A stretch of 33,704 nucleotides of DNA from an uncultured Candidatus Saccharibacteria bacterium (GTDB lineage: Bacteria; Patescibacteriota; Minisyncoccia; UBA6257; 2-01-FULL-56-20): positions 1 through 33,704 of the forward strand of contig CAZNYI010000003.1 in assembly GCA_964577245.1 (NCBI GenBank), in the 5' to 3' direction. Shown piece by piece: positions 1 to 16,100 of this stretch; position 1 is the stretch's first letter; each line of letters begins with the position of its first letter. The position numbers and the translations under genes are program-made. The notes under the pieces were generated by a model. The model worked only from the letters and a program-made list of their open reading frames with translations. It was not told the DNA's origin and did not search any database.

Positions 1-153
1 TCGTTTGATACGGCAGACGAAGCCGTGGAATCCGTGCAAGCGTTCCTGCGAAAAGGGGATCTGGTCTTGGTAAAAGGATCCCATTCCATGGAGCTCAATA
101 AAGTAGTGGAAGGAATAAAGTTTATGATGCCGTCATCGTCTAGCCTGGCCTAG
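1..153 (+). CDS. murF: C-terminal fragment of a Mur ligase, most like UDP-MurNAc-pentapeptide synthetase MurF (5' end outside the window)
   Basis: Frame-1 ORF is open from the window edge to TAG 151-153. The translation ...GDLVLVKGSHSMELNKVVEGIKF resembles the KGS-x-x-M-x-L-x-x-VV C-terminus of MurF-type ligases. Similarity judged by eye only. Confidence 0.55.
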   Translation, partial: SFDTADEAVESVQAFLRKGDLVLVKGSHSMELNKVVEGIKFMMPSSSSLA

Positions 154-203
154 GACGTCGCCCTCTCACGGCGAAAACTCGGGTTCGAATCCCGATGGCG
201 GTA
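129..203 (+). tRNA. tRNA-Glu, anticodon CUC, no encoded CCA
   Basis: Cloverleaf folded by hand. Acceptor 129-135/196-202 (two G-U pairs). D arm 138-141/153-156. Anticodon stem 158-162/170-174, loop CTCTCAC with CTC at 165-167. T arm 179-183/191-195 with TTCGAAT loop. Discriminator A203. The TCGTCTAG...GGAC D region is typical of tRNA-Glu. Confidence 0.85.
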
Positions 204-293
204 CAACGATAGCAAAACAGGAATGTAGGTTTTGAAAGCAGCTAGAGATTTACTGCTTTCAAAACCTACATTCCTGTTTTGCTATCGTTGTAC
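201..293. repeat. 41-bp perfect inverted repeat (AT-rich hairpin with an 11-nt loop) abutting the tRNA 3' end
   Basis: 201-241 is the exact reverse complement of 253-293, checked base by base. The loop 242-252 is ctagagattta. The left arm begins inside the last 3 nt of the tRNA-Glu gene. Confidence 0.9.
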
Positions 294-300
294 TTTCATT

Positions 301-445
301 GGGGGATTCGAACGGCAGGGGTGGGTCGGAGGGGGCGGCCCGCCCCCTCCGTGTTGGAGGGTCGCGCGTTTCGCGCGACAGTGCGGCACCGTGGGTGCCG
401 CAGGAGCGAAGCCGGTCTTACCGGCGAGCGACGTTCGAATCCCTC
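301..445. other. GC-rich nested-palindrome module; candidate structured ncRNA or MITE/REP-like element, class unknown
   Basis: A 14-bp closing inverted repeat 301-314/432-445 (one G-U) contains TTCGAA. Inside are four perfect palindromes with 3-nt loops: 328-337/341-350, 361-368/372-379, 383-390/394-401, 411-416/420-425. The tracked ORFs here translate to Gly/Pro/Arg low-complexity strings. Confidence 0.5.
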
Positions 446-535
446 TTATTTGACCAGGAGCATATATTGTTGTTCAATAAAAGGTGCCGGAGCGGATCGC
501 TTTGGTACGATTAAAAGAGAAGAAATTTATTTTTG

Positions 536-1801
536 ATGAAAACAAAGCCGGATTTCAAAAAGGCGAGTTGGTTAAACAAGTATAGGAGTAATATTGACTT
601 AGAACCATTTTTCCAGAGGGGAACGGTTTGGAGCGATGATAAAAAGCAATATTTTATCGACTCACTTCTGAAGGGATGGGGAACACCAAAGATATTTCTT
701 TGGGAGACCGGCAAAGATTCTTATGCCTGTCTTGATGGTAAGCAACGGCTGACTAGTCTATTTAAGTTTATGGCAGACAAGTTGCCACTTAAGGAAGATT
801 ATTCTCGAGGATACGGAGGAAGAAAATATTCTAAGTTGTCAGTTGCCATCCAAGATGCAATAGATAATTACAATTTTTCCGTAGAAATGTTGACTGAAGT
901 TGAAGGCGATGAGGCTATAGAGCTTTATAAACGGCTACAAGGAGGAACACCGCTTAATTTTGGAGAGAAGCTGTTTTCAATGTCGGGGAATATGAATGAC
1001 TTTATCAAGCGTCGGCTAAGCGCAAAAACTTTTTTCAAAGAAAGAATATCACTTCCAGATACAAGGTATTCTCATTATGCTGTTTGTGCTCAATTGTGTT
1101 TGCTAAGCATAAAGGGCGCAAAAGAGGATTTAAAACTAAAAAACTTAGAGAAGTTTTTTAAAGAGTACCACAACTTTAATTACAAAAGTCCAGAGGCAAA
1201 AAAGATTTTTGATGTTGTGCGGCACCTAGAAAAAGCATTTCCAAATAAAAACGATGCCGCGTTAAGAAATAGGGCGAGTGTTGTATCAATATTCTACTTA
1301 TTAGCAGATATATCCGCCCGAGGCGATATTTCTGGGCGAGAGAAAGAGATAGGTCTTTTCTTTAGTCGATTTGTAAAAAAAATTCAGAAAGAGCTTGATA
1401 AAAAGCCTGAGAATCGCAACCCAGCGTTGTTGAGCTATCAATCAGCGGTTACGCAGGGAGCAGATAAAATAAAATCAATAAATATACGACACGGCGTATT
1501 ACTGAAGGAACTAGAAGAAAAAAACAGATTTTTTTATAGCCTCCTTAATCCAATATCTCCGCAGGATCAATTTGCAAAAGCTTATAATGAGGCACGAAAA
1601 AAACTAAAAATTACAAGCATTGGCGCATTTGATGAATGGCTGATTAGAAACAAGGGACAAGTAGATATAAAATGTCCCGCGTCTCACGCTAGGGGAGAAA
1701 CGTTCATTGGCCACATCCTCAACTGTATCCACCATCCCGAACATGGAACTTTCTTGGTTAATAAGTTGGGAACGGCAACTAAGATTTTAAAAAGCATTTA
1801 A
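536..1801 (+). CDS. DUF262 (GmrSD/ParB-like N-terminal domain) protein
   Basis: FFQRGTVWS and LDGKQRLTSL match the QR-x-x-VW and DGQQR signatures of DUF262. Start is ATG 536; TTG 533 is in frame. No DUF1524/HNH-type C-terminal motif is recognisable by eye. AT-rich coding sequence. Confidence 0.7.
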   Translation: MKTKPDFKKASWLNKYRSNIDLEPFFQRGTVWSDDKKQYFIDSLLKGWGTPKIFLWETGKDSYACLDGKQRLTSLFKFMADKLPLKEDYSRGYGGRKYSKLSVAIQDAIDNYNFSVEMLTEVEGDEAIELYKRLQGGTPLNFGEKLFSMSGNMNDFIKRRLSAKTFFKERISLPDTRYSHYAVCAQLCLLSIKGAKEDLKLKNLEKFFKEYHNFNYKSPEAKKIFDVVRHLEKAFPNKNDAALRNRASVVSIFYLLADISARGDISGREKEIGLFFSRFVKKIQKELDKKPENRNPALLSYQSAVTQGADKIKSINIRHGVLLKELEEKNRFFYSLLNPISPQDQFAKAYNEARKKLKITSIGAFDEWLIRNKGQVDIKCPASHARGETFIGHILNCIHHPEHGTFLVNKLGTATKILKSI

Positions 1802-1823
1802 TAATGCGCAAGCACAGCGCACC

Positions 1824-1853
1824 TTGACAAACGCACCAATAATGTGGTACCAT
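1824..1853 (+). promoter_or_regulatory. sigma70-like promoter for the 470-aa gene
   Basis: TTGACA 1824-1829, 18-nt spacer, TGgTACCAT extended -10 ending at 1853. Confidence 0.4.
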
Positions 1854-1880
1854 TGTCACAGTATTTTTAACCCCGTCTTT

Positions 1881-1922
1881 CCTAGATAATTGCCCAATAG
1901 TTTTATTCGGCAGCTATCTAGG
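1881..1922 (+). promoter_or_regulatory. 5' UTR hairpin overlapping the Shine-Dalgarno site
   Basis: Arms 1881-1894 and 1909-1922 pair at 13 of 14 positions (one G-U, one mismatch). The 3' arm covers the first 3 nt of SD AGGAGGG (1920-1926). ATG is at 1934. Confidence 0.45.
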
Positions 1923-1933
1923 AGGGACCATAT

Positions 1934-3346
1934 ATGGACGCAAAATCAATCGCAGACCAAGCGCGCGAAAGGGCGAGAATCGCCCTCGAGCAAGAGCAAC
2001 TGAGACAACAAGAGGCCAAGGAACAGGAAAATCAGGAAGCTGCCCAGCGGCAGCGCTCCGACTACCCCGACATCCTCCGCGCCAAAATCTCCGCCGGATT
2101 GAACGTTGAAAAGACCGGCGACTACACGCAAGACCTCGCGGCGTTTCAGGGGCAGATGCGGGAATTCATCAACACGATTCCCGCCGCACTGCTCCTCAAA
2201 GCTGAATGCAGTATCCTGGCGCGAATCATCGGATACGCCGTCGAGATGCTGAGCATCGTCCCGGACATTCCGGCGCACATTCTCGGAAGCAAACCGAGCG
2301 AAGACCGGCTCAAGCCGTACATCGACCAGGTGCTTCATCGCAATCTCCGCGCTCGTACGTTCGCCAACCTTCTCTCGGACGCCGAAGTTCGCGAGCGGCT
2401 GTACGCGACCTGCGAGCCGGAAACGTTTGAAGCGCGCCTCAACGCGCTGGCCGGGGAAGTCCAACAGGCCAAACCCACGGTCGGCGACTCGGACGCCTTT
2501 CAGGCGGACTGTCGCAGTCGTTGGATAAAGGTTTTCGAAGCGGTCGAGGCGGTCAACGCAATCGGCTACTTCCAGACCAACGGAACCTACATCCTTCGCG
2601 CCAACATCAACTGGAAGGCTGGATGGCGGTACGATTCTGGCATGGGGTACGTCGCCGACACGACCGATCGGACGTTCATTCTCTCCCGGATCAACCAGGG
2701 AGCGGAAGTCGCCCGCATCGCGAAGATTGTCGAGACGCTGAAGGGTTGGACGGTTGCGCTCGAAACGCTGCCGCCCCAAACCAAGAAAGCGCTCGACGAA
2801 CTGGAGTGCGAAGCCTATCGTGCGACGGCGCTCGGAAAGCTCATCCGCAGCTTGGAGGTGTTCGGTGTCTGGTCGACCAACCAGTGCATCGACACGACCT
2901 CGCATCCGTACCACGTGGGAGAACTCGCCGAACCGTTTCTCGAGATGCTCAACGAGTATGCGGCAGTGAGTCCCGTTTCGGCGGTGGTCATCCTGCATCG
3001 CATGGCGAGCACGGTTGGCAGTTGCTACGGCTACAATTGCCCCGAAGAGAGCCTAGTCGACAATGGCAGGGAGCCTGCCGCGTGGATCGACGTTTTCAAG
3101 CTCCCGGAAGTCCGCTCGGTCTTTCAGGGCAAGCGCAGTCCCAAGTGGGTTGCGCTTCAGGTCCACCGGCTGTTCGCGGTGTGCCGGCAATACATCAACT
3201 GGCGGAAGGACAGTTGGCAAGACTGGCACTTCCGCCAAGGCGCCGAACCGAAAGACATCGCCGAGCAGTGGCTCAAAGTGCGCAACGACGAGGCCTATTG
3301 GCAGGCACTCGCGGAAGAAGAAAGGCGCCGCCGGGAGAGCGCGTAG
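1934..3346 (+). CDS. hypothetical protein, 470 aa, with charged coiled-coil-like termini
   Basis: Long GC-rich ORF. SD AGGAGGG lies 7 nt upstream of ATG 1934. An intrinsic terminator follows at 3385-3418. No recognisable domain. Confidence 0.65.
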   Translation: MDAKSIADQARERARIALEQEQLRQQEAKEQENQEAAQRQRSDYPDILRAKISAGLNVEKTGDYTQDLAAFQGQMREFINTIPAALLLKAECSILARIIGYAVEMLSIVPDIPAHILGSKPSEDRLKPYIDQVLHRNLRARTFANLLSDAEVRERLYATCEPETFEARLNALAGEVQQAKPTVGDSDAFQADCRSRWIKVFEAVEAVNAIGYFQTNGTYILRANINWKAGWRYDSGMGYVADTTDRTFILSRINQGAEVARIAKIVETLKGWTVALETLPPQTKKALDELECEAYRATALGKLIRSLEVFGVWSTNQCIDTTSHPYHVGELAEPFLEMLNEYAAVSPVSAVVILHRMASTVGSCYGYNCPEESLVDNGREPAAWIDVFKLPEVRSVFQGKRSPKWVALQVHRLFAVCRQYINWRKDSWQDWHFRQGAEPKDIAEQWLKVRNDEAYWQALAEEERRRRESA

Positions 3347-3384
3347 AGATCGGCAGTATTGATTGATTGCGTTCATCTTGAACC

Positions 3385-3418
3385 GGCCGCAGGACAACTC
3401 TGTTCTGCGGCCTTTTTT
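3385..3418 (+). terminator. intrinsic terminator
   Basis: Stem GGCCGCAG 3385-3392 / CTGCGGCC 3405-3412, followed by T6 at 3413-3418. Confidence 0.8.
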
Positions 3419-3482
3419 ATTGCTATGAGAAGCATCTCTAATTCGCACCGACTTTACCTCCAACGCGAGCGCATCAAAATGA

Positions 3483-3495
3483 TATAATCAATCAC
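3483..3495 (+). promoter_or_regulatory. -10 box placed for a leaderless transcript
   Basis: TATAAT 3483-3488, 7 nt, then ATG 3496. No SD. Confidence 0.5.
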
Positions 3496-3984
3496 ATGGA
3501 AGTCGTCCTAACCTCGAACGAACAAAAACTCGTAGACTACTCAAAAGAGGCGATCGTCGCTTATAACAAGATGCGCCACGAACGAGGCGACATTGATACG
3601 CTGTATTCTTTTGTGATGTCAGACAGCGGAAAAATATACGACGGCGTATGCTTTGAGCCAAATATCGCCCAAGCTACCGTTTGCGGAGAGCGCCATGCCA
3701 TACAAAATATGGTGTTGAAAGAATCATATAAAGCAAAGATAGAAACTATCGTGGTTGCCGATCCAGTTCCAGAAGTACAAAAAAAGAGCACCCCTCCTTG
3801 CGGTACGTGCCGACATCTCATTTGGCAGTTTGGTAATCCTGACGCGACGGTTATTCTGATGCAATATATCCAAGGGAAGAACGGGTGGACTTTTCCAAAG
3901 ATGGAGAAGTACACGATCAAAGAGTTATATCCGCATCCATATGAACCCGTGGAAGGTCTCTGGAATAACTGGGAGCCGAAGTAA
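3496..3984 (+). CDS. cytidine / blasticidin-S deaminase-like zinc deaminase
   Basis: CGERHAI corresponds to the C-A-E motif (Gly in place of Ala). PPCGTCRHLIW corresponds to PCxxC. Size (162 aa) fits the homotetrameric CDA family. Confidence 0.7.
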   Translation: MEVVLTSNEQKLVDYSKEAIVAYNKMRHERGDIDTLYSFVMSDSGKIYDGVCFEPNIAQATVCGERHAIQNMVLKESYKAKIETIVVADPVPEVQKKSTPPCGTCRHLIWQFGNPDATVILMQYIQGKNGWTFPKMEKYTIKELYPHPYEPVEGLWNNWEPK

Positions 3985-3987
3985 CCC

Positions 3988-4713
3988 ATGAAGGAATATT
4001 TTGGTAAGAGCTCCAAGGTATACGAGCAAACGCGGGGCAAGCGCTTTGTCCTCATCCCTGCCATAAGGCGCAATCTTAAAAAATCATCTAACGGGAAATT
4101 ATTGGATGTTGGCTGTGGGATAGGAGACCTATCATTAGTGGCAAATGCAAAAGGATATACCTATTATGGCGTTGATGTTTCAAAAGACATGATCGCGCGC
4201 GCCAAGCAGATTTTTCCAAGCGGAAAATTTATCGTGGCCTCCGCAACCAATTTCTCCTCCCATTTCAAAGAGAAGTTTGATGTCATATTATTGAGCATGC
4301 TTTTGCCGGCGATCAAAGAAGAGAAGGACCTGCTCAAAACCCTTCAAGAGTGCAAGAAAGTATTAAAACCCCACGGAGAAATTATCCTCGGCGAGCCCTA
4401 TCCGACATTTGATGGCTACATGCAGTCGTCTCTCTTCCAGCGTAAGGACGTTAAAACAAAATTTGCCGGGTATTTTGCGTCGGGCACTCCGGTTTCCATA
4501 ACGCACAAAATGGGCAAAGGGCGTCTCACGTTTAATGACTATCACCGGACGCTCGCCGACTACTGGAATGTAATAAAAAAAGCGGGGCTTGCGGTGGATC
4601 GTCTGGATGAATGCCCTCCCGACAAGACCGCCATGAAATTTGATAAATCATTCTATCGGGACAGGTCTCGTTTCCCAACGTATCTACTTCTCGTCTGTAA
4701 GGCGGGGGATTAA
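3988..4713 (+). CDS. class I SAM-dependent methyltransferase
   Basis: LLDVGCGIGDLS matches motif I, with downstream FDVILLSM and LKPHGEIILGEP. The gene starts 3 nt after the deaminase stop. Confidence 0.75.
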   Translation: MKEYFGKSSKVYEQTRGKRFVLIPAIRRNLKKSSNGKLLDVGCGIGDLSLVANAKGYTYYGVDVSKDMIARAKQIFPSGKFIVASATNFSSHFKEKFDVILLSMLLPAIKEEKDLLKTLQECKKVLKPHGEIILGEPYPTFDGYMQSSLFQRKDVKTKFAGYFASGTPVSITHKMGKGRLTFNDYHRTLADYWNVIKKAGLAVDRLDECPPDKTAMKFDKSFYRDRSRFPTYLLLVCKAGD

Positions 4714-4751
4714 ATAGAATCGCTCAAATGTCGTTGCGAGCTCTCCTTCGC

Positions 4752-4782
4752 AAAAAAAGGGAGCTATCTTGCGACAACTCCC
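4752..4782 (-). terminator. intrinsic terminator for the 4797-5117 gene
   Basis: Minus-strand stem GGGAGTT/AGCTCCC (plus 4759-4765 / 4776-4782) is followed by T7 (plus A-run 4752-4758). Confidence 0.7.
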
Positions 4783-4796
4783 GACGTGAGGTTCTT

Positions 4797-5117
4797 TCAC
4801 GATGCCTGCGAGGATGGGTCGGACGTTCTGACCGCAACGAATCCCTTGATGAAACAGTGTGGGAACTGGTGGTAGAGGTCGCCCCTATCTTCGAGGGAAA
4901 ATCCTGTCACCTGGGCGATGAGCATGAAAAGCGTTGCGATTTGGTACGCATTGAGAGCCGGCGGAAGCCACTGGCGGAGGCGGCGACCAGTTTCGATGTC
5001 GAAATTGATCCTGAGCCCATTCCGGCAAACGAACCAATCTCCATCCTGGAAGTCGTATAGCAGCGCATCGCCGGGCCGCAATTCCAAGCTCGTATCGTGG
5101 GCAATCTGACTTGTCAT
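4797..5117 (-). CDS. hypothetical protein, 106 aa
   Basis: SD AGGAGC (plus 5124-5129) lies 6 nt upstream of ATG 5117. Promoter 5136-5164 and terminator 4752-4782 flank it. C/G-ending codons dominate. A same-phase antisense ORF (4728-5060) competes. Confidence 0.5.
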   Translation of the reverse strand: MTSQIAHDTSLELRPGDALLYDFQDGDWFVCRNGLRINFDIETGRRLRQWLPPALNAYQIATLFMLIAQVTGFSLEDRGDLYHQFPHCFIKGFVAVRTSDPSSQAS

Positions 5118-5135
5118 GGGAATGCTCCTACTGGA

Positions 5136-5164
5136 CTTATAGCGTGGGCGGTTATGAAAGTCAA
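5136..5164 (-). promoter_or_regulatory. sigma70-like promoter
   Basis: On the minus strand: TTGACT (5159-5164), 17-nt spacer, TATAAG (5136-5141). Confidence 0.5.
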
Positions 5165-5223
5165 TAAATCGTAATGCTTCAATGGCTTGGAATAATCAAA
5201 ATCATTCACGATTACATCCTCCC

Positions 5224-5256
5224 TAAAATTTTAAAGGCGCAGCTAGTAGCTGCGCC
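5224..5256 (-). terminator. intrinsic terminator for the 5293-5577 gene
   Basis: Palindrome GGCGCAGC...GCTGCGCC at 5236-5256, followed on the minus strand by a T/A-rich run (plus 5224-5235). Confidence 0.7.
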
Positions 5257-5292
5257 AAGGCGAAAACGGATGGAAGTAGTTGTAGATCGCGC

Positions 5293-5577
5293 TTACGGGG
5301 CGACCTCTTGGTCGGCCGGAAATGAGTTGTTCCTCGCGAGCCACCGTTCCACAACCTTGGCCAGATCGGCCGGATTTGTGAGCTCGGGCGTCTCCTCGAG
5401 GAAGTAACCGTCTTCAAGTTCGGCGCGCATGGCCTCCAGCGCGCGTCCACGCCAAACGTTTTTGACGGCAAGGCCAATCTTCGCCGCCGCTGCCTCGATG
5501 GAGTCGGCAGCTACGATCCCGAACGGCATGCATTGCGTTCTTTCATCGGGAATCAGCCCGGTTAAGTCGAAGAGCAC
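5293..5577 (-). CDS. hypothetical protein, 94 aa
   Basis: GTG start at 5577 with SD AGGAGG (plus 5585-5590) 7 nt upstream. A terminator lies downstream. GC-rich. Confidence 0.5.
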   Translation of the reverse strand: MLFDLTGLIPDERTQCMPFGIVAADSIEAAAAKIGLAVKNVWRGRALEAMRAELEDGYFLEETPELTNPADLAKVVERWLARNNSFPADQEVAP

Positions 5578-5678
5578 GATCGCACCTCCTGAGAATGTTG
5601 TACATCACATTGCGTTGCCTTGTCAATTTAGCGCGCGCCGTTCAACCCCATCATTCTAAAATAATTCTAAAACCCACC

Positions 5679-5708
5679 TTGACTTCTCCCAAAATACGGC
5701 CTTATACT
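5679..5708 (+). promoter_or_regulatory. promoter placed for a leaderless hicB-like transcript
   Basis: TTGACT 5679-5684, 18-nt spacer, TATACT 5703-5708, then 8 nt to ATG 5717. Confidence 0.5.
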
Positions 5709-5716
5709 ACCTATTG

Positions 5717-6064
5717 ATGAACACTCTAAAAACGCGCGTCGTCAACACTAAAAAGAGCGGCATTGTTCACTTTGTCTATGTCTCAAACGACAAAGGTGCT
5801 TTTGGTATTTGTTTGGATTTTAATATTGTAGAAGAGGGTGCTACTGAGGCCGAGGTGCGTAAACACCTTGAAATCGCGGTTGCTTTGCACATAGAAACGG
5901 TTCGCGAAAAAAATCTTTCCGACGATCTTTTGAACCGTCTTGCTCCGCAAGAGTATTGGGATATGTATGATGACTTTCACACCAAGAAATCTGCCAAGGG
6001 AAAAAATTCTTTGCGGGTAGAGGGAATGGAATATACAAAAACCGCTTTGCCGATGGGCGTGTAA
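5717..6064 (+). CDS. HicB/UPF0150-like antitoxin
   Basis: GAFGICLDFNIVEEGATEAEVRKHLEIAVALHIE resembles the HicB N-terminal fold signature (G-x-T-x-E-E-A...A). It lies directly upstream of a HicA-like ORF. Confidence 0.5.
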   Translation: MNTLKTRVVNTKKSGIVHFVYVSNDKGAFGICLDFNIVEEGATEAEVRKHLEIAVALHIETVREKNLSDDLLNRLAPQEYWDMYDDFHTKKSAKGKNSLRVEGMEYTKTALPMGV

Positions 6065-6079
6065 TGCTTTCCAATCATC

Positions 6080-6352
6080 ATGGCGAGCGGCATTAGTAAT
6101 TGGAGCCATGATGACGTAATTGAGTTTTTGGAATACCACGGCTTTTCTTTCGGAAAAGAGCTCGGTGGTTCTCATAGCGCATGGATAAGCCACGATAGCA
6201 AATGTGTGGTTGATGTAAATCTAACGAAATCGTCCTATCCAGAATTAACTATGCTGACAATAATAAGCAACTCTGGGTTGAGTAAAGAACATTGGCGAAA
6301 GTGGACCACGCTCAGTAAAAGCCTGAAAAAGAAGCTGGTTTGTTGCCGCTAA
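6080..6352 (+). CDS. HicA-like mRNA interferase toxin
   Basis: DVIEFLEYHGFSFGKELGGSHSAW matches the HicA/YcfA pattern (L-x-x-x-G-F...GSH). 90 aa. Confidence 0.55.
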   Translation: MASGISNWSHDDVIEFLEYHGFSFGKELGGSHSAWISHDSKCVVDVNLTKSSYPELTMLTIISNSGLSKEHWRKWTTLSKSLKKKLVCCR

Positions 6353-6361
6353 GAAGGTCTT

Positions 6362-6832
6362 ATGCTAAAGCAATTCTCCTATCAATTTATCGCGGGTCCG
6401 TTCCCGACTCGTGAAGAGCTCCAAGGGGACTGGCAGATAGGCAATTGCCGTCGTGCCCTGCAGTACTATGTTTTGCAATCAAAAGGATTATTTCTAAAGC
6501 CAGACGAGGTATTGTCTCCGGGTGCTTATCATAAAACAGGGACTTTCGTATTTAAGAAGGGTGAGAAGATAGACCTTGGCGCGCTCAAAACCGGCGATAT
6601 AATTTATGCCGAACGGATCAGGAGTAAAGCCGGAGAGCTTGTTGATAAGAGCGAGCAGGGATTCCCAACCGAAGATGATTATATTACTTCACTGCACACC
6701 GCGATTTGGATCGGTGAACCCGGCAAGGAAATTTGGCATTCAACTGCGGTTGAGGGCAGTAGCTGTTCTTGGGTACTAGGACGCTTCCAATATTTTTATC
6801 GCATCGTTGCGGCGAAGAGAATCACGACCTAG
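6362..6832 (+). CDS. NlpC/P60-like (papain-fold) protein, tentative
   Basis: The ordered elements GNCRRALQYY, GDIIYA and LHTAIWIG...IWHST fit the Cys...GD-x-x-F...H-x-x-I-Y-x-G...H layout of C40 peptidases. By eye only. Confidence 0.4.
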   Translation: MLKQFSYQFIAGPFPTREELQGDWQIGNCRRALQYYVLQSKGLFLKPDEVLSPGAYHKTGTFVFKKGEKIDLGALKTGDIIYAERIRSKAGELVDKSEQGFPTEDDYITSLHTAIWIGEPGKEIWHSTAVEGSSCSWVLGRFQYFYRIVAAKRITT

Positions 6833-6870
6833 TTTGTGAAATTGTTCGAAGGCCATCCAGCCCCGCTCAA

Positions 6871-6910
6871 AATTAAAAAAGGCCCCGCTGCAACAGCTGA
6901 AGCGGGGCCT
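6871..6910 (-). terminator. intrinsic terminator for the 6936-7274 gene
   Basis: Stem AGGCCCCGCT 6880-6889 / AGCGGGGCCT 6901-6910. A T-run follows on the minus strand (plus A-run 6875-6880). Confidence 0.7.
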
Positions 6911-6935
6911 CTGGCTGGCGGCGGGGCGAGCGCGG

Positions 6936-7274
6936 CTACTTCCAGCCGCGGCATTCCTTCACGACGTGTGCGAGGGCTCTCAATTCCGCGGCGAGCGCAA
7001 AGTCATCGCTGAGCTCCATCTCGTCCGCTTGGTATTCCAGTGAACGGACGAGGCCTCGCGAGATGTTCATGTCGCCGGTTCGTGCTACTGAGCACAAAAT
7101 GGAGAAGCGGAGCATTTCGGTTTCCTCGGGAGATCTGTCCACTCTCGCGGTCAGACCATCGAGAAAGCTGTCGACTATCCGCCTCGTGGTTTGTGGAAGC
7201 GCCTCGTGCAGGAATTGAAGCAGGTTTTCCTTCTCTTCCTTTGAGAAGTGAACAGGTTTTCTTCGTATCTTCAT
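6936..7274 (-). CDS. hypothetical protein, 112 aa
   Basis: SD GGAGGT (plus 7283-7288) lies 8 nt upstream of ATG 7274. Promoter 7303-7332 and terminator 6871-6910 flank it. GC-rich. Confidence 0.55.
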   Translation of the reverse strand: MKIRRKPVHFSKEEKENLLQFLHEALPQTTRRIVDSFLDGLTARVDRSPEETEMLRFSILCSVARTGDMNISRGLVRSLEYQADEMELSDDFALAAELRALAHVVKECRGWK

Positions 7275-7302
7275 AAGGCCCTACCTCCGCAGAGCTAACT
7301 AC

Positions 7303-7332
7303 TTATTAACAAATAGGCGGGGGTAATGTCAA
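7303..7332 (-). promoter_or_regulatory. sigma70-like promoter
   Basis: On the minus strand: TTGACA (7327-7332), 18-nt spacer, TAATAA (7303-7308), then GT and AGTTAG (7295-7300). Confidence 0.4.
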
Positions 7333-7370
7333 ATACGTTTATCCGCCGTGTCCAGTCCTCCCTACAAATG

Positions 7371-7395
7371 AAAAAGAGGCGGATTGTTCCGCCTC
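7371..7395 (-). terminator. intrinsic terminator for the 7430-7606 ORF
   Basis: Stem GAGGCGG 7376-7382 / CCGCCTC 7389-7395. T5 follows on the minus strand (plus A-run 7371-7375). Confidence 0.7.
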
Positions 7396-7429
7396 CCTGG
7401 CTGACGATTTTGCGGTCGCGCAATGGGGG

Positions 7430-7606
7430 CTATCGGTAGACGGTCATCGACCTTACCTTGACGCTCCGAACTGCGCACTCGGGAACGTCAGCGTTCCGTC
7501 CGGCGGCGATGTGCTCTGCATAGCCCTGGTCAGTGAATAAACTCTCTTCGCCGCTCAACTCCTGTTCGTTGTCGGCGAATACAATTGCATACACAGTCGT
7601 AGACAT
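7430..7606 (-). CDS. small hypothetical protein, 58 aa (below the ORF-track size cut-off)
   Basis: Hand translation gives MSTTVYAIVFADNEQELSGEESLFTDQGYAEHIAAGRNADVPECAVRSVKVRSMTVYR with stop TAG at 7430-7432. SD GGAAGGGA is upstream. A TTGACG-N18-TATAAA promoter lies upstream and a terminator downstream. Confidence 0.4.
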   Translation of the reverse strand: MSTTVYAIVFADNEQELSGEESLFTDQGYAEHIAAGRNADVPECAVRSVKVRSMTVYR

Positions 7607-7689
7607 GAGTTGTTCCCTTCCTGAGTAGGTTTATAGCACGCAGGGATTCGTTGCGTCAACCGCCGCGCAAAAGTGATACTATATAGTAA

Positions 7690-8100
7690 ATGGAAAAAGA
7701 GGTAGTGAAGGTATCGGTTGTGGCGGGCGTCGTCCTTAAGAATGACGGGAAATATCTTCTCGTTCAAGAAAAACAGCCTCGTGCCTATAAGCTCTGGAAT
7801 CTTCCTGCGGGTCGTGTTGACGTTGGCGATACCATAGAACAAACCGCCATCAAAGAAGCAAAAGAAGAATGCGGTTTTGATGTTCGCTTGGGGCGCAAGA
7901 TCGGCATTTTTCAAAACACAGCGACCGAGCCATCGAGGCATATCTTTGAGGCAGAGATTATCGGGGGCACGCTTCAGTTTCCAGACGATGAGCTTCTCGA
8001 CGCGAGGTGGTTCACCATTGAAGAATTAAAAGTCATGGAAGGCGAACTTCGTGGGGGATGGATACTTGAGGCTATCAATGAAGCTTTATCCAAACCATGA
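7690..8100 (+). CDS. Nudix hydrolase
   Basis: Nudix box GRVDVGDTIEQTAIKEAKEECGF. An extended -10 (TGaTACTAT, 7674-7682) lies 7 nt before ATG 7690. Confidence 0.85.
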   Translation: MEKEVVKVSVVAGVVLKNDGKYLLVQEKQPRAYKLWNLPAGRVDVGDTIEQTAIKEAKEECGFDVRLGRKIGIFQNTATEPSRHIFEAEIIGGTLQFPDDELLDARWFTIEELKVMEGELRGGWILEAINEALSKP

Positions 8101-8612
8101 AACTGCTAAAAATACTTAACCCTCAAAACGCGACCGAGGATGAGATTGCAAAATATCCCGTGAGGAATGCGGCGAGGGCGATCTTGTGCGACAAAGAGGG
8201 GAACATAGGTATTTTAAATGTCACGAAGAGAGGCTACCACAAATTACCCGGCGGAGGGATTGAGGAAGGCGAAAACGTTCTTGATGCGCTCAAGCGGGAA
8301 TGCAAAGAAGAGCTCGGCTGTGATGTTGAGGCGCTCGGCGAAGTCGGGCAAATAATTGAATATCGGAAAATTTTCGAGCTCACCCAGAACTCCTTTTGTT
8401 ATTTGGCGAATCTCGTTGGGGAAAAGGGGACGCCTTCCCTTACGCAAGAGGAGGTTGAGAGTGGATTCGTGGTCCAATGGTTCCCCGTAAAAAAAGTGAT
8501 GTCTGTTCTTGCTTCAGATCGGCCGCAAAACGACGAGGGTAGTCTTTATATTGTTCCACGAGACAGAATTTTCCTTGAGGCAGCAAAAGAGCAACTAGAT
8601 AGGCTCTTATAA
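8097..8612 (+). CDS. Nudix hydrolase (second, divergent copy)
   Basis: Nudix box GGGIEEGENVLDALKRECKEELGC. Its ATG overlaps the upstream TGA (ATGA at 8097-8100). Confidence 0.85.
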   Translation: MKLLKILNPQNATEDEIAKYPVRNAARAILCDKEGNIGILNVTKRGYHKLPGGGIEEGENVLDALKRECKEELGCDVEALGEVGQIIEYRKIFELTQNSFCYLANLVGEKGTPSLTQEEVESGFVVQWFPVKKVMSVLASDRPQNDEGSLYIVPRDRIFLEAAKEQLDRLL

Positions 8613-8637
8613 AAAAGACCCCGCAACCATCGCGGGG
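8611..8637 (-). terminator. intrinsic terminator for the 8662-8889 gene
   Basis: Stem CCCCGC 8619-8624 / GCGGGG 8632-8637. A T-run follows on the minus strand (plus A6 at 8611-8616). Confidence 0.6.
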
Positions 8638-8661
8638 CCATCGGAACGGGGGTTGGCGTTG

Positions 8662-8889
8662 CTACCAGCAAGGATCGCCCCCCGGAAGCTCAACGAGGCT
8701 TTCTTCGCGCATGCCTTGCTGCGCTATCCGCTCGCGCGCATCGAGTATCTTGCGGCACTCCGCACAGTTCACGTCTTCCTGGGAAAGGGCGTAAACGTGA
8801 TTGCTCGGCCACTCCTCGGGAGGCTTGCCCTCAAAGAAACCGCACTCCGCCTGATATGTGCGGGTTATAGCGTGAATGCATGATGCCAT
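8662..8889 (-). CDS. hypothetical Cys-containing protein, 75 aa
   Basis: SD AAGGAG (plus 8896-8901) lies 6 nt upstream of ATG 8889. Promoter 8913-8941 and a downstream terminator flank it. GC-rich. Confidence 0.5.
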   Translation of the reverse strand: MASCIHAITRTYQAECGFFEGKPPEEWPSNHVYALSQEDVNCAECRKILDARERIAQQGMREESLVELPGGDPCW

Positions 8890-8912
8890 CTGGAACTCCT
8901 TTCACTAATCAC

Positions 8913-8941
8913 TTTATACGACACTAGGATTAGTAAGTCAA
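8913..8941 (-). promoter_or_regulatory. sigma70-like promoter
   Basis: On the minus strand: TTGACT (8936-8941), 17-nt spacer, TATAAA (8913-8918). Confidence 0.5.
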
Positions 8942-9041
8942 AACCGTTCGAGCATCGTCCAGCTCCGTGCGTTTATGAAAATGAAAGCCCCGCACCACGT
9001 GAAGGTTTGGGGCCTTCGGTGAATGCGGGGTTGTGCTGCGC

Positions 9042-9566
9042 TTACTTTGCGGTTGCTTCCGCGTCGATCTCGGCAAGCGCTGCCGAGAGCTTCTCTTTCT
9101 CGCGGCGGATCTGTCCGTTGAGCCAGCCGCTCAGCGTGAATCCTTTCGGGGGTTTGTAGAGGGTCACGGAGTAACCCCCTACGCTGTGATGATCTTTCAC
9201 GATGTAGCCTTCACGGATTTCCACCGCATAGGCCACCCGGTCCGGCTGGCCGAGACGGAGTAGTGCCTCGCCAACGGTCTCGCCGTCCTCGTATTCGTTG
9301 TCCCAGTTTGCCTCGTTGTGGGTGATGTCGATGGTCTGGCGCACCTCAGCGAGCAATTTCCCGCTGGCACTGAGGAGAAAAATCTTCGCGTCGTCCGCGA
9401 TGTCGACCAGGTTGCCGGTCGCGCCATCGTGGAGAGCCCGCTTCTCCATGAACTCATGGGAGATGCGGCTCACCCTTGTCTCCATGTCCTCTTTCCACTC
9501 GACTGGGAGAATCCACAGCAAACTCTCAAACTCCTGCCGAAACACGTGAATTCCAAAGCGATTCAT
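9042..9566 (-). CDS. hypothetical protein, 174 aa
   Basis: SD GGAAGGAGAG (plus 9571-9580) is upstream of ATG 9566. A hairpin lies downstream near 8985-9030. GC-rich, no recognisable domain. Confidence 0.55.
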   Translation of the reverse strand: MNRFGIHVFRQEFESLLWILPVEWKEDMETRVSRISHEFMEKRALHDGATGNLVDIADDAKIFLLSASGKLLAEVRQTIDITHNEANWDNEYEDGETVGEALLRLGQPDRVAYAVEIREGYIVKDHHSVGGYSVTLYKPPKGFTLSGWLNGQIRREKEKLSAALAEIDAEATAK

Positions 9567-9713
9567 AGGTCTCTCCTTCCGCTTCTCGCGGATGTCTATG
9601 GAGCCAGCATCTCGCTATCGGCTCCGGAGTGATGATATGAGGCGTTATTGCTTCTCGTGCCATATCGCACGCTTTCCGGATGGGGAAAGGAACGATGCCA
9701 AAATACTAACTAT

Positions 9714-9741
9714 ATTGTAGCATATTCATAAATCCTGTCAA
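9714..9741 (-). promoter_or_regulatory. sigma70-like promoter giving a roughly 140-nt leader
   Basis: On the minus strand: TTGACA (9736-9741), 16-nt spacer, TACAAT (9714-9719), then AT and AGTTAG (9706-9711). Confidence 0.5.
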
Positions 9742-9760
9742 GCTCCAGTAAAACAGCAAC

Positions 9761-9793
9761 AAAAAAGAAGGGTGGTCAGCCCCTTCTTGTTTT
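9761..9793. terminator. bidirectional-looking intrinsic terminator (serves the REC gene)
   Basis: Stem AAGAAGGG 9765-9772 / CCCTTCTT 9781-9788, with an A-run before and a T-run after. Confidence 0.75.
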
Positions 9794-9818
9794 ACGACCG
9801 TTGCTGCGCCCGCTGCGC

Positions 9819-10205
9819 CTACTGGAGGAACTGAGCGATCTTTTCCCCCATGGTGTCGTCGTCTTTGTACTTGGCGAACACCATGTTCGCCCCGGCCTGC
9901 CGCGCAGCTTCAAGGTAGCCCTTGGCTTTGGACCATGCCACAATGACAATGTTGGGGCAGAGCACTCTGATCGAGCGGATCAGATTGACGCCCGCTTCCG
10001 GATAGCCGCCATCCTGGAACATCAAGTTGGTTACGATGACGCGCGGGAGCCGCCCTTCGGTCTTGTCCATTCTCAAGCGGGCGAGAACCAGGCCCGGCGT
10101 TGATAGCGTGTCGGGGTCCACTTCGAACTGGTCTCCTAAGAGCCGCTGGGCGCGCCGAGCGCCGATAGTTGTATCTTCGGCTAACAACAGTTTAATCCTT
10201 TCCAT
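9819..10205 (-). CDS. stand-alone CheY-like receiver (REC) domain protein, atypical
   Basis: KLLLAEDT matches the acidic pocket, VIVTNLMFQDGG matches VISDWNMPNMDG, and MVFAKY carries the conserved Lys. Asn60 sits where the phospho-acceptor Asp is expected. Alignment to CheY is by eye. Confidence 0.65.
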   Translation of the reverse strand: MERIKLLLAEDTTIGARRAQRLLGDQFEVDPDTLSTPGLVLARLRMDKTEGRLPRVIVTNLMFQDGGYPEAGVNLIRSIRVLCPNIVIVAWSKAKGYLEAARQAGANMVFAKYKDDDTMGEKIAQFLQ

Positions 10206-10227
10206 TACTGCCCCCTAACTAATCGGG

Positions 10228-10256
10228 ATTATATGAATATGACACTAGAAAGTCAA
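10228..10256 (-). promoter_or_regulatory. sigma70-like promoter
   Basis: On the minus strand: TTGACT (10251-10256), 17-nt spacer, TATAAT (10228-10233). Confidence 0.55.
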
Positions 10257-15341: not shown

Positions 15342-16100
15342 ATGAAGAAGTTATTGGTTGCGAATTGGAAGGAGAACCCACGCACGGAGGCGGCGGCAGT
15401 AAAACTGTTCCGCGACGTCGCGAAAATAAAACCGGTCAAAAACGTTGAAGTGGCAGTGTGCCCACCACTCCTTTATTTGGGGCGAATCGCGGCCTTGCGT
15501 ATGCGGCGCGGGAAGAGCGCTCGGCACGTCGCGCTTGGCGCGCAGGATGTTTTCTGGGAAGAGAAGGGCGCTTATACAAGCGAGATCGGCCCCAAAATGC
15601 TTCGGGCGCAGGGCGTGCGCTACGTGATCGTCGGCCATTCGGAGCGGCGCCGCTGGCTTAAAGAGACCGACGCGATGATCAATAAAAAAATAAAGCGCGT
15701 GTTGCGCGACGGCTTACGCGTGATCCTGTGCGTGGGTGAACCGCTTGCGGTTCGCAAAAGGGGGATCGTTGCCGCAAAGAATTTTGTCGTTGGCCAGCTC
15801 AAAAAAGATCTTGTGGGGGTTTCGAGCGCCGCGCGAGCGCACCTCATAGTGGCATACGAACCGATCTGGGCGATCGGCACCGGCCGATATGATGCGCCGG
15901 AAGATGCTGCGGCAGTGGCCGCCGTTATTAAGCGTTTCGCCCCACGCGTGCTCTATGGCGGTTCCGTAGACGGCAGAAACATCCGCGATTATGTACAATA
16001 TAAAGGAATAGACGGCGCTTTGATCGGGGGCGCCAGTTTGCGCGCAGCGGAATTCAAAAAAATGGTCGCCGCGAGTGCGCAGGTGCGAATAAAAAAGTAA
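15342..16100 (+). CDS. tpiA: triosephosphate isomerase
   Basis: VANWKEN, VIVGHSERR and AYEPIWAIGTG are hallmark TIM motifs. The extended -10 TGgTAAGAT lies 6 nt upstream of the ATG. Confidence 0.92.
   Translation: MKKLLVANWKENPRTEAAAVKLFRDVAKIKPVKNVEVAVCPPLLYLGRIAALRMRRGKSARHVALGAQDVFWEEKGAYTSEIGPKMLRAQGVRYVIVGHSERRRWLKETDAMINKKIKRVLRDGLRVILCVGEPLAVRKRGIVAAKNFVVGQLKKDLVGVSSAARAHLIVAYEPIWAIGTGRYDAPEDAAAVAAVIKRFAPRVLYGGSVDGRNIRDYVQYKGIDGALIGGASLRAAEFKKMVAASAQVRIKK

Follow-up and report, generated by a model that had tools for sequence, protein, structure and literature searches.

Comparative sequence analysis points to a conserved two-domain element with inverted and direct copies of the tRNA 3′ end behind tRNA-Glu(CTC) in Paceibacterota

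The contig CAZNYI010000003.1 of assembly GCA_964577245.1, of which we analyzed the whole stretch of 33,704 nt (hereafter the window), opens with the 3′ end of murF and a tRNA-Glu(CTC) gene, directly followed by a long palindrome and a GC-rich module of hairpins. As judged by comparison with related loci, the window here carries its version of a two-domain element that is conserved and lineage-specific and sits at the 3′ end of tRNA-Glu(CTC) in Paceibacterota (Patescibacteria/candidate phyla radiation, CPR). The element is previously undescribed, our literature search including full text having found no description of such an element in Patescibacteria/CPR, and it is a tRNA-linked structured element of unusual architecture. 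Every member has the same order, namely the tRNA, whose last ~21 nt we term A1, a domain X, a U-rich linker, a segment A′, a domain I and a segment A2, where A2 is a direct copy of A1 and A′ an inverted copy of its T-loop/T-stem part. We tentatively favor the reading of a 3′ trailer RNA that is structured and may influence the processing of the murF-tRNA-Glu transcript through its long stems and competing pairings.

In the window, the tRNA-Glu(CTC) gene occupies 129..203 on the plus strand (ARAGORN sets its end at 204; Rfam RF00005, 54.6 bits) and its CCA is not encoded. The last 41 codons of murF (1..159, plus strand, from translation; the full 431-aa MurF is found upstream in the related locus L009, related loci being designated by L numbers) overlap with it, so that murF ends, with its stop codon TAG (157-159), 31 nt into the tRNA gene. 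Segment A1, which comprises the T-loop, the 3′ strands of the T-stem and the acceptor stem and the discriminator (GTTCGAATCCCGATGGCGGTA, 183..203, plus strand), is the part copied downstream. Flush with the tRNA 3′ end follows domain X (201..293, plus strand), a perfect 41-bp hairpin with arms at 201-241 and 253-293 and a loop at 242-252. The first-pass annotation of this DNA had described the arms as exact reverse complements whose left arm starts within the acceptor 3′ strand, and the sequence confirms this: they match over 41 nt with 0 mismatches (0 such matches in 100 shuffles), and the left arm opens with the last three tRNA bases GTA (201-203). The inverted repeat extends at 92% to 191-241/253-303, and GTAC is present at both ends of the domain. 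Next comes the U-rich linker TTTCATT (294..300, plus strand), delimited by repeat search and manual pairing and resembled by the linkers of relatives. The linker, GTAC (290-293) and GGG (303-305) are jointly able to pair with the tRNA bases 191-204 at 13 of 14 positions, including three G.U pairs and a 2-nt bulge, which would extend the 41-bp helix into the tRNA.

The GC-rich module (301-445) is closed by A′ (GGGGGATTCGAACG, 301..314, plus strand) as its 5′ arm and A2 (CGTTCGAATCCCTC, 432..445, plus strand) as its 3′ arm. The T-arm core GTTCGAATCCC stands in direct orientation at 183-193 in the tRNA and at 433-443 in A2, and inverted at 303-313 in A′, in agreement with the earlier statement that both closing arms carry it, one of them inverted. 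Calling these ends T-arm-like was thus correct, while a more specific description is that they are inverted and direct copies of the genome's own tRNA-Glu T-loop and T-stem. The closing repeat had been given as 14 bp; the 14 pairs are there, but one is a wobble, as the stem consists of 12 perfect pairs (303-314/432-443), G302.T444 and G301-C445. The interior of domain I (315..431, plus strand) was defined by its fold, three alignments (numbered A2, A6 and A8) and covariation counts. It is divided into J1 (315-326), H1 (327-351), J2 (352-360), an optional hairpin (361-379), H2 (382-402, with the apical sequence ACC-GNG-GGT), J3 (403-410), H3 (411-425) and J4 (426-431). Sequence and fold bear out the four perfect palindromes reported for the module, which pair 327-338/340-351, 361-368/372-379, 382-390/394-402 and 411-416/420-425. 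The module has a predicted minimum free energy of -100.2 kcal/mol (z = -6.6 versus shuffles), and its sharply raised GC content is also real, with 70-76% for 301-445 against 30-38% in its flanks (0.76 at 301-400, 0.36 at 201-300 and 0.30-0.38 at 451-600).

The evidence for conservation comes from the murF-tRNA-Glu junctions of ~45 Patescibacteria loci, which were collected via MurF and comprise 32 species representatives, six additional metagenome contigs and a number of fragments. The organism is itself a member of the Patescibacteria, with metagenome-assembled genomes (MAGs) labelled Minisyncoccia or Paceibacterota as its best relatives by MurF, and the order murF then tRNA-Glu(CTC) is nearly universal among the 32 Patescibacteria loci. 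Comparison of the junction across these relatives uncovered homologues of domain I in the same position, 3′ of the tRNA and on the same strand, in L044, L046, L047, L011, L039, L030 and L040, whose MurF proteins are 90%, 75%, 72%, 69%, 62%, 54% and 51% identical to that of the window strain, respectively. A covariance model of the eight sequences (R2) scores its members with 84-134 bits and everything else in 315 kb with at most 24 bits. In alignment A8, standard pairs fill 89.9% of the pair cells compared to 75.2% in shuffles, and changes on both sides are found in 20 of the 35 base pairs, the observed value being reached by 0 of 500 shuffles. Sliding the pairing partners by 1-3 columns lets pairing in the same alignment fall to 29-59%. 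When H1-H3 were counted manually, 195 of 198 pairs were Watson-Crick, 2 were G.U and 1 was a mismatch. The changes are well illustrated by the H2 arms in the manual table, which read TGCGGCACC/GGTGCCGCA in the window, TTCGGCACC/GGTGCCGAA in L040, TTGAGAACC/GGTTCTCAA in L011, CCGGAAACC/GGTTTCCGG in L046 and TTAAAAACC/GGTTTTTAA in L030, around an apical ACC-GNG-GGT that is invariant in that table. The joining strands are purine-rich and conserved in sequence (GGAAGGGGG, GTGTAGGAG, AGCGCAG and GAGC); these unpaired strands and the H2 loop are better conserved than the stems. Two further loci, L032 and L038, possess the same arms around a divergent interior and were missed by the covariance model. 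Hence, homologues with compensatory changes, the generic hallmark of a structured RNA, are present, and the eight loci with such changes at the same place, spanning MurF identities of 51-90%, refute the earlier suggestion of a strain-specific scar.

The copies of the tRNA 3′ end behave as parts of the same element. A2 repeats A1 from the T-loop to the discriminator over 21 of 21 nt in L044, 22 nt in L039, 18 in L011, 17 in L040 and 11 in the window, at a distance of only 230-335 bp between A1 and A2. In L039, A′ is full-length at 21 nt, and its single C-to-T change still allows a G.U pair. Both A′ and A2 track the T-loop variant of each host's tRNA (TTCGAAT, TTCAAAT, TCCGAAT, TTCGATT or TTCAATT), and in L040, L030, L032 and L038 A′ is a better match to the actual tRNA end than to A2. 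A tRNA-3′-end-like fragment, GTTCGAATCCCTGGCGCTCCGCC, was also observed ~50 nt past tRNA-Glu in L008 (~452-480). It is closer to the window type of A2 than to its own tRNA, whose T-loop reads TTCAAAT, and may be the remnant of a lost module.

Domain X is found in relatives as well. L046 and L047 carry homologous perfect hairpins with arms of 33 and 30 bp and loops of 12 and 18 nt, respectively, whose arm sequence is related to that of the window (..GCAAAA..GGTTTGGAAAG..). In L044, L040, L011 and L010, the arms are perfect over 24-38 bp and surround an interior of 89-104 nt. Homology of this interior is clear between L044 and L040, where compensatory changes are present, while L010 shows it only in part. 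Since the arms surround an interior in these relatives, the palindrome of the window is the closing stem of a second domain whose interior was lost. The palindrome noted at first pass is therefore real, but it is this closing stem rather than a separate oddity. The X arms of the window and L044 are about half identical, compared to 85% identity in domain I. The locus L015 has the tRNA end, X and a perfect A′ of 17 nt without domain I.

From its sequence, the window copy is a derived form that has lost not only the X interior but also the acceptor part of A2. Relatives continue A2 as GATGGCGGTA, a copy of the tRNA-Glu acceptor strand, while the window reads TCTTATTTGACCA at this place. Since homology to L044, the closest complete relative, ends in blastn at 443..444, inside A2 and at the start of a variable block, the window has lost this part at the border of a replaced block. 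It follows that the tRNA-end geometry 'TTCGAAT + 5 + 7 + A + CCA' (434-456) proposed earlier looks coincidental, although the accompanying remark that no T stem can form in the 3′ arm agrees with the sequence. The apparent CCA of TCTTATTTGACCA overlaps with, and is accounted for by, the -35-like hexamer TTGACC (450..455, plus strand, from sequence). TTGAC(A/C), likewise -35-like, also occurs 3′ of the element in L047, L046 and L010; a simple promoter scan near the element in the window did not call TTGACC or any other promoter.

Searches for known families support the earlier judgment that the module belongs to none, as Rfam and ARAGORN return only tRNA-Glu. In the window, it alone passes the gathering score of Rfam 15, and a permissive Rfam scan of 190-540 and of the complete L044 and L040 elements gave hairpin matches far below threshold for both domains; weak matches to miRNA precursors and ftsZ-DE were discarded as generic hairpin similarity. 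ARAGORN reports only tRNA-Glu at 129-204 in the window and no added gene at the element in relatives. Together with the lack of an acceptor 5′ strand and of a T stem, this led us to reject a second, split or intron-containing tRNA or a transfer-messenger RNA (tmRNA). Screening a protein database with translations of spurious open reading frames (ORFs) found no members, the exact closing-arm pair gave 0 matches in the genome collection, and the pattern of the palindrome arm occurs in a single contig of the JGI metagenome collection. Over ~350 kb in total, the element occurs singly, once in the window and once in each related locus, always 3′ of tRNA-Glu.

How might such an element work? In the favored reading, the tRNA strand of the element would be active as a single strand, most probably as RNA that is transcribed with the tRNA as its 3′ trailer. 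A precedent for functional 3′ external spacers of tRNAs exists in E. coli (3′ETS-leuZ). Since A1 equals A2 and A′ is their complement, four segments, the tRNA 5′ half, A1, A′ and A2, could pair in two mutually exclusive ways, with A′ bound either to A2, which would close domain I, or to A1, which would extend the X helix into the tRNA. State 1 would thus combine a normal cloverleaf with a closed domain I, whereas in state 2 a long A1:A′ rod would stack on X and the tRNA 5′ half would pair, through its acceptor strand, with the A2 tail. Processing or termination would be the role of the long perfect stems, and the balance between both states could set the amount of mature tRNA-Glu or of a stable trailer RNA. 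Predicted folds of the full transcript place A′ on A1 in six of eight loci and the tRNA acceptor 5′ strand on the A2 tail in six of eight, the A1:A′ state being predicted to lie 4-16 kcal/mol below the tRNA and trailer folded separately. In the window, the fold keeps the cloverleaf acceptor stem and A′:A2; as the acceptor part of A2 is lost there, only state 1 would be favored. With regard to the strand, the wobbles counted in H1-H3 and in closing stems of equal length are all G.T on the plus strand with no A.C (further G.T pairs were read by eye in the L040 and L046 closing stems), and the plus strand folds 12 kcal/mol better than the minus strand, which together lend indirect support to the strand of the tRNA. 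That the unpaired joining strands are conserved also counts for a single-stranded form.

Several observations speak against a trailer RNA. Domain I has no evident promoter, and by eye domain X of L039 and L030 resembles an ordinary intrinsic terminator with a U-tract, so that A′-I-A2 would stay untranscribed there unless read-through occurs. A scan for the intrinsic-terminator consensus found none in window 1-900, where the AT-rich 41-bp stem of X is followed by TTTCATT. The X arms are perfect in every lineage despite their fast sequence change, and the helices as a whole are near-perfectly Watson-Crick (~1% G.U), which is unusual for functional RNAs and would fit hairpins in DNA or palindromes whose perfection is maintained by template switching. 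A direct repeat of the tRNA 3′ end from the T-loop onwards is, moreover, a classic signature of site-specific integration. The covariation comes from only eight sequences, including a close pair, and alignment A8 had been adapted to the structure of the model. The distribution is patchy (eight canonical members among ~28 loci with downstream sequence), the close relatives L036 and L038 differ by an insertion or deletion of ~155 nt, and the two-state scheme derives entirely from sequence repeats and thermodynamic prediction.

An extension of the trailer RNA, which we consider rather improbable, is a cis-acting RNA switch on tRNA maturation in which A′ would be an anti-tRNA strand, A2 a decoy and domain I the part that decides on the partner, by means of a ligand, a protein or folding kinetics. 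With A′ held by the decoy A2, tRNA-Glu(CTC) would fold and be processed, whereas A′ invading the tRNA would produce a long duplex that could be cut or degraded. In a related possibility, tRNA-processing enzymes might cut after both 3′-end copies and thereby release a rod-shaped, possibly circular RNA of 250-340 nt.

The main rival to the trailer RNA is an integrase-less miniature integrative element or its remnant, akin to a cis-mobilizable element, which we regard as unlikely, albeit less so than the other alternatives. The stretch from the T-loop to the 3′ end would then be an attachment site with A1 as attL and A2 as attR, X-A′-I would be what is left of the element, and later islands would enter or swap at A2. 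The direct repeat of 11-22 nt that starts at the T-loop and ends with the discriminator is what such an element would leave. A 'regenerated target plus displaced fragment' pattern is described for genomic islands in a passage of PMC4383910, and we count the A1/A2 repeat in favor of the mini element as it corresponds to the pattern of that passage. The intact tRNA and direct 3′ repeat of genomic islands at tRNA genes are in place, but an integrase and island-sized DNA are not: no integrase or recombinase was seen among the Pfam-scanned genes checked beside the element, the ORFs of the other related loci having been listed without a Pfam scan. The patchy distribution and the presence/absence difference between L036 and L038 would suit a mobile origin, while the extra segment of L038 relative to L036 seems to start ~10 nt past the tRNA and not inside it. 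The idea of a tRNA hotspot, put forward at first pass, holds in so far as the genes behind the element differ between close relatives and homology with L044 breaks within the 3′ arm. Variable, partly defence-like blocks start at or in A2: L044 reads GATGGCGGTA followed by an AAA_15/AAA_21 ATPase gene, the window TCTTATTTGACCAGG followed by a GmrSD_N gene. No third copy of A was found at the far side of the variable block, however, the search for a further tRNA 3′-end copy having covered the window, the L044 locus and the right junctions of the block. A recent exchange or sweep of a tRNA-trailer-island segment is suggested by L045 (208-2058), whose murF DNA has only 94.2% identity while the 580 nt that begin with tRNA-Glu (window 129-708) match at 100%; that several MAG contigs end exactly at tRNA-Glu also counts for the mini element. 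Against it stand the conservation of the 230-335 bp interval with compensatory changes across lineages of 51-90% MurF identity, and the inverted copy A′, which it leaves unexplained, as it does the closer tracking of the host tRNA by A′ than by A2. Nor do mobile-element collections contain a copy: blastn of 129-460 against phages and plasmids matched the tRNA part only, and pattern scans of IMG/VR yielded either nothing or chance matches in coding regions, none of which fits the model.

About as improbable as the RNA switch is that the region is selfish or neutral palindromic DNA, made of quasi-palindromes or sequences like miniature inverted-repeat transposable elements (MITEs), next to an ordinary murF-tRNA terminator and without a function of its own. 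Template-switch correction, an established mutational process for perfecting quasi-palindromes, would maintain the perfection of the long arms, which indeed persists in every lineage while the arms diverge to about half identity between the window and L044. The terminator-like X hairpins with U-tracts in L039 and L030 fit in with this explanation, while the negative terminator scan of window 1-900 does not. Other long perfect inverted repeats, enclosing 40-140 nt, do exist elsewhere in the related MAG loci, yet the element itself occurs once per locus, always after tRNA-Glu and nowhere else in ~350 kb. The terminal inverted repeats of MITEs and repetitive extragenic palindromic (REP) sequences are present (41 bp in X, 12-14 bp in I), but not their many dispersed copies; as neither the 33.7-kb window nor the related loci (~315 kb) showed a second copy, and the arm is confined to one JGI locus, the earlier MITE/REP-like proposal is not upheld. 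Palindromic DNA would account neither for the conservation of the joining strands and the H2 loop beyond the stems nor for the covariation of A′ and A2 with the tRNA.

Still less probable is a recombination or replication site acting as folded single-stranded DNA, in the manner of an integron attC site, the attP hairpin of the CTX phage or a single-strand origin of plasmids. The A′:A2 stem would then recreate the duplex of the tRNA-gene 3′ end, on which a host or distant recombinase would act. In integrons, a target core, an inverse core, a structured loop and a core make up the topology of attI-cassette-attC, and the element repeats this sequence of parts. Near-perfect Watson-Crick helices with wobbles of only G.T on one strand would suit DNA hairpins, and both the constant orientation and the position of the variable genes 3′ of A2 agree with such a site. 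On the other hand, neither arrays of sites nor a second site past the variable block were found, each locus having a single one; the stems are perfect and lack the extrahelical bases of attC, and the genes checked nearby showed no integron integrase or other recombinase. The conserved purine-rich joining strands and the H2 apical loop are foreign to attC sites, and the 'cassette' between A1 and A′ would be just the non-coding hairpin X.

The remaining candidates can be dismissed briefly. An assembly artefact or strain-specific scar has next to no probability: palindromes can arise in assembly and contigs of related genomes often break nearby, but the sequence is the same base for base in L009 (JGI, 666 nt of overlap, 0 differences) and L045 (ENA, 580 nt, 0 differences) and is therefore no artefact, being identical in three assemblies of different sources, with homologues in seven further loci. 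An ORF of 85 codons with a TTG start spans the whole module (window 279-536). Coding potential was nonetheless rejected, as no ORF is conserved in frame; since the frames differ between homologues the ORF is spurious, though gene callers may annotate it. A retron msr-msd was rejected because the neighboring genes checked encode no reverse transcriptase domain and the order of domains does not fit, and an invertible promoter formed by A′/A2 because the orientation is the same in all eight loci and domain I has no promoter-like sequence.

The genes around the element show no consistent partner, as those downstream differ at every locus. Upstream of the window, L009 carries rsmH, ftsL, ftsI and murF. 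The variable block of the window begins with the GmrSD_N (DUF262) gene (533..1801, plus strand; Pfam PF03235, E = 3.8e-16), for whose product an exact-protein look-up returned no record. It is followed by a GC-rich ORF without Pfam match, by deaminase, methyltransferase and NUDIX genes and by a HicB-like gene. The GC-rich ORF (1934-3346) encodes 470 aa at ~60% GC amid 35-40% GC, and an identical protein is present in two other assemblies. Core genes resume at 15342 with tpiA, followed by SIMPL, GtrA, murB and secA. In relatives, tpiA is close to tRNA-Glu, within ~60 nt in L012 and separated by one small ORF in L005; the ~15 kb between tRNA and tpiA in the window are therefore accessory. In blastn, the window matches L044 at 1-204 with 90% and at 290-443 with 85% identity and then not again until 10214, where homology resumes at a common intergenic promoter-like stretch (window 10214-10256); between these shared flanks lie unrelated gene blocks (window 444-10213, L044 7672-11031).

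Four independent assemblies of the strain group break inside the GmrSD_N gene, with L009 ending at 666 and L045 at 708, and L002 and L001 starting at 717 and 1255, respectively, which suggests strain-level heterogeneity there. At the tRNA itself, the MAG contigs of L013, L014, L021, L026 and L041 end at or just past tRNA-Glu, and in L027 (5278-5377) a masked run of N takes its expected position; the tRNA-Glu region seems hard to assemble in this group. L005 has an inverted repeat upstream of the tRNA, between murF and tRNA-Glu (206-308; 16 bp perfect, ~21 bp by eye, with a GC-rich interior of 71 nt). Away from tRNA-Glu, perfect inverted repeats with arms of 16-26 bp, 40-140 nt apart, are found in L037 (3853-3993), L038 (7860-7982 and 8045-8152), L035 (3800-3947 and 7511-7603), L032 (950-1045 and 7791-7964) and L028 (6239-6362). 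Those at L037 3853-3993 and L038 8045-8152 have the arm motif CATCCCGTTA in common, and these repeats may be MITE-like families.

If the element is transcribed, it would constitute a new structured RNA family in the little-studied CPR and, to our knowledge, the first known case of a tRNA gene with antisense and decoy copies of its 3′ end in its own trailer, which could gate tRNA maturation or release a stable trailer RNA. If it is a site at the DNA level, it would be a conserved landing pad by an essential single-copy tRNA gene at which defence genes are exchanged. In practical terms, the element accounts for spurious ORF calls such as that at window 279-536 and for the frequent contig breaks at tRNA-Glu in CPR MAGs, and the covariance model built from it can be run on all Patescibacteria genomes.

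When compared to known systems, the element shares single features with several of them and fails a defining feature of each that can be tested. With functional tRNA spacers such as 3′ETS-leuZ and the RNase III stems of rRNA/tRNA operons, it has in common that long stems around structured domains immediately follow a tRNA in the same orientation. It differs from these in being known from sequence alone, in having stems made of tRNA 3′-end copies and in having no known small RNA partner. The four segments with two exclusive pairings recall attenuators and riboswitch-type switches, for which the conserved multi-helix junction could be a sensor, whereas here the fold of a tRNA would be controlled in place of a terminator or ribosome-binding site, and there is almost no G.U. 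The intact tRNA, the direct repeat of its 3′ end from the T-loop and the variable, partly defence-like neighbors are those of attL/attR tRNA fragments at genomic islands, unlike the 230-335 bp between the repeats with no integrase seen, the added inverted A′ and the interior conserved across distant lineages. As in attC sites and the folded attP of the CTX phage, the arrangement of inverse core, structured loop and core rebuilds the duplex of the target with strand-specific pairing, but arrays, extrahelical bases and a cognate recombinase are not seen, and the target is a tRNA gene and not attI or dif. Small size, non-coding nature, flanking inverted repeats, hairpins and GTAC at the ends of X resemble MITE, REP, BOX and Correia repeats, from which the element differs in being single-copy and site-specific in all searched data, with arms that vary between lineages around conserved interiors. 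With tRNA-like structures (the tmRNA domain, mascRNA and Y RNA modules), finally, it shares T-arm sequence and, in relatives, the acceptor 3′ strand, whereas it forms no T stem-loop, has no ARAGORN or Rfam match and buries the T-loop sequence in a long helix.

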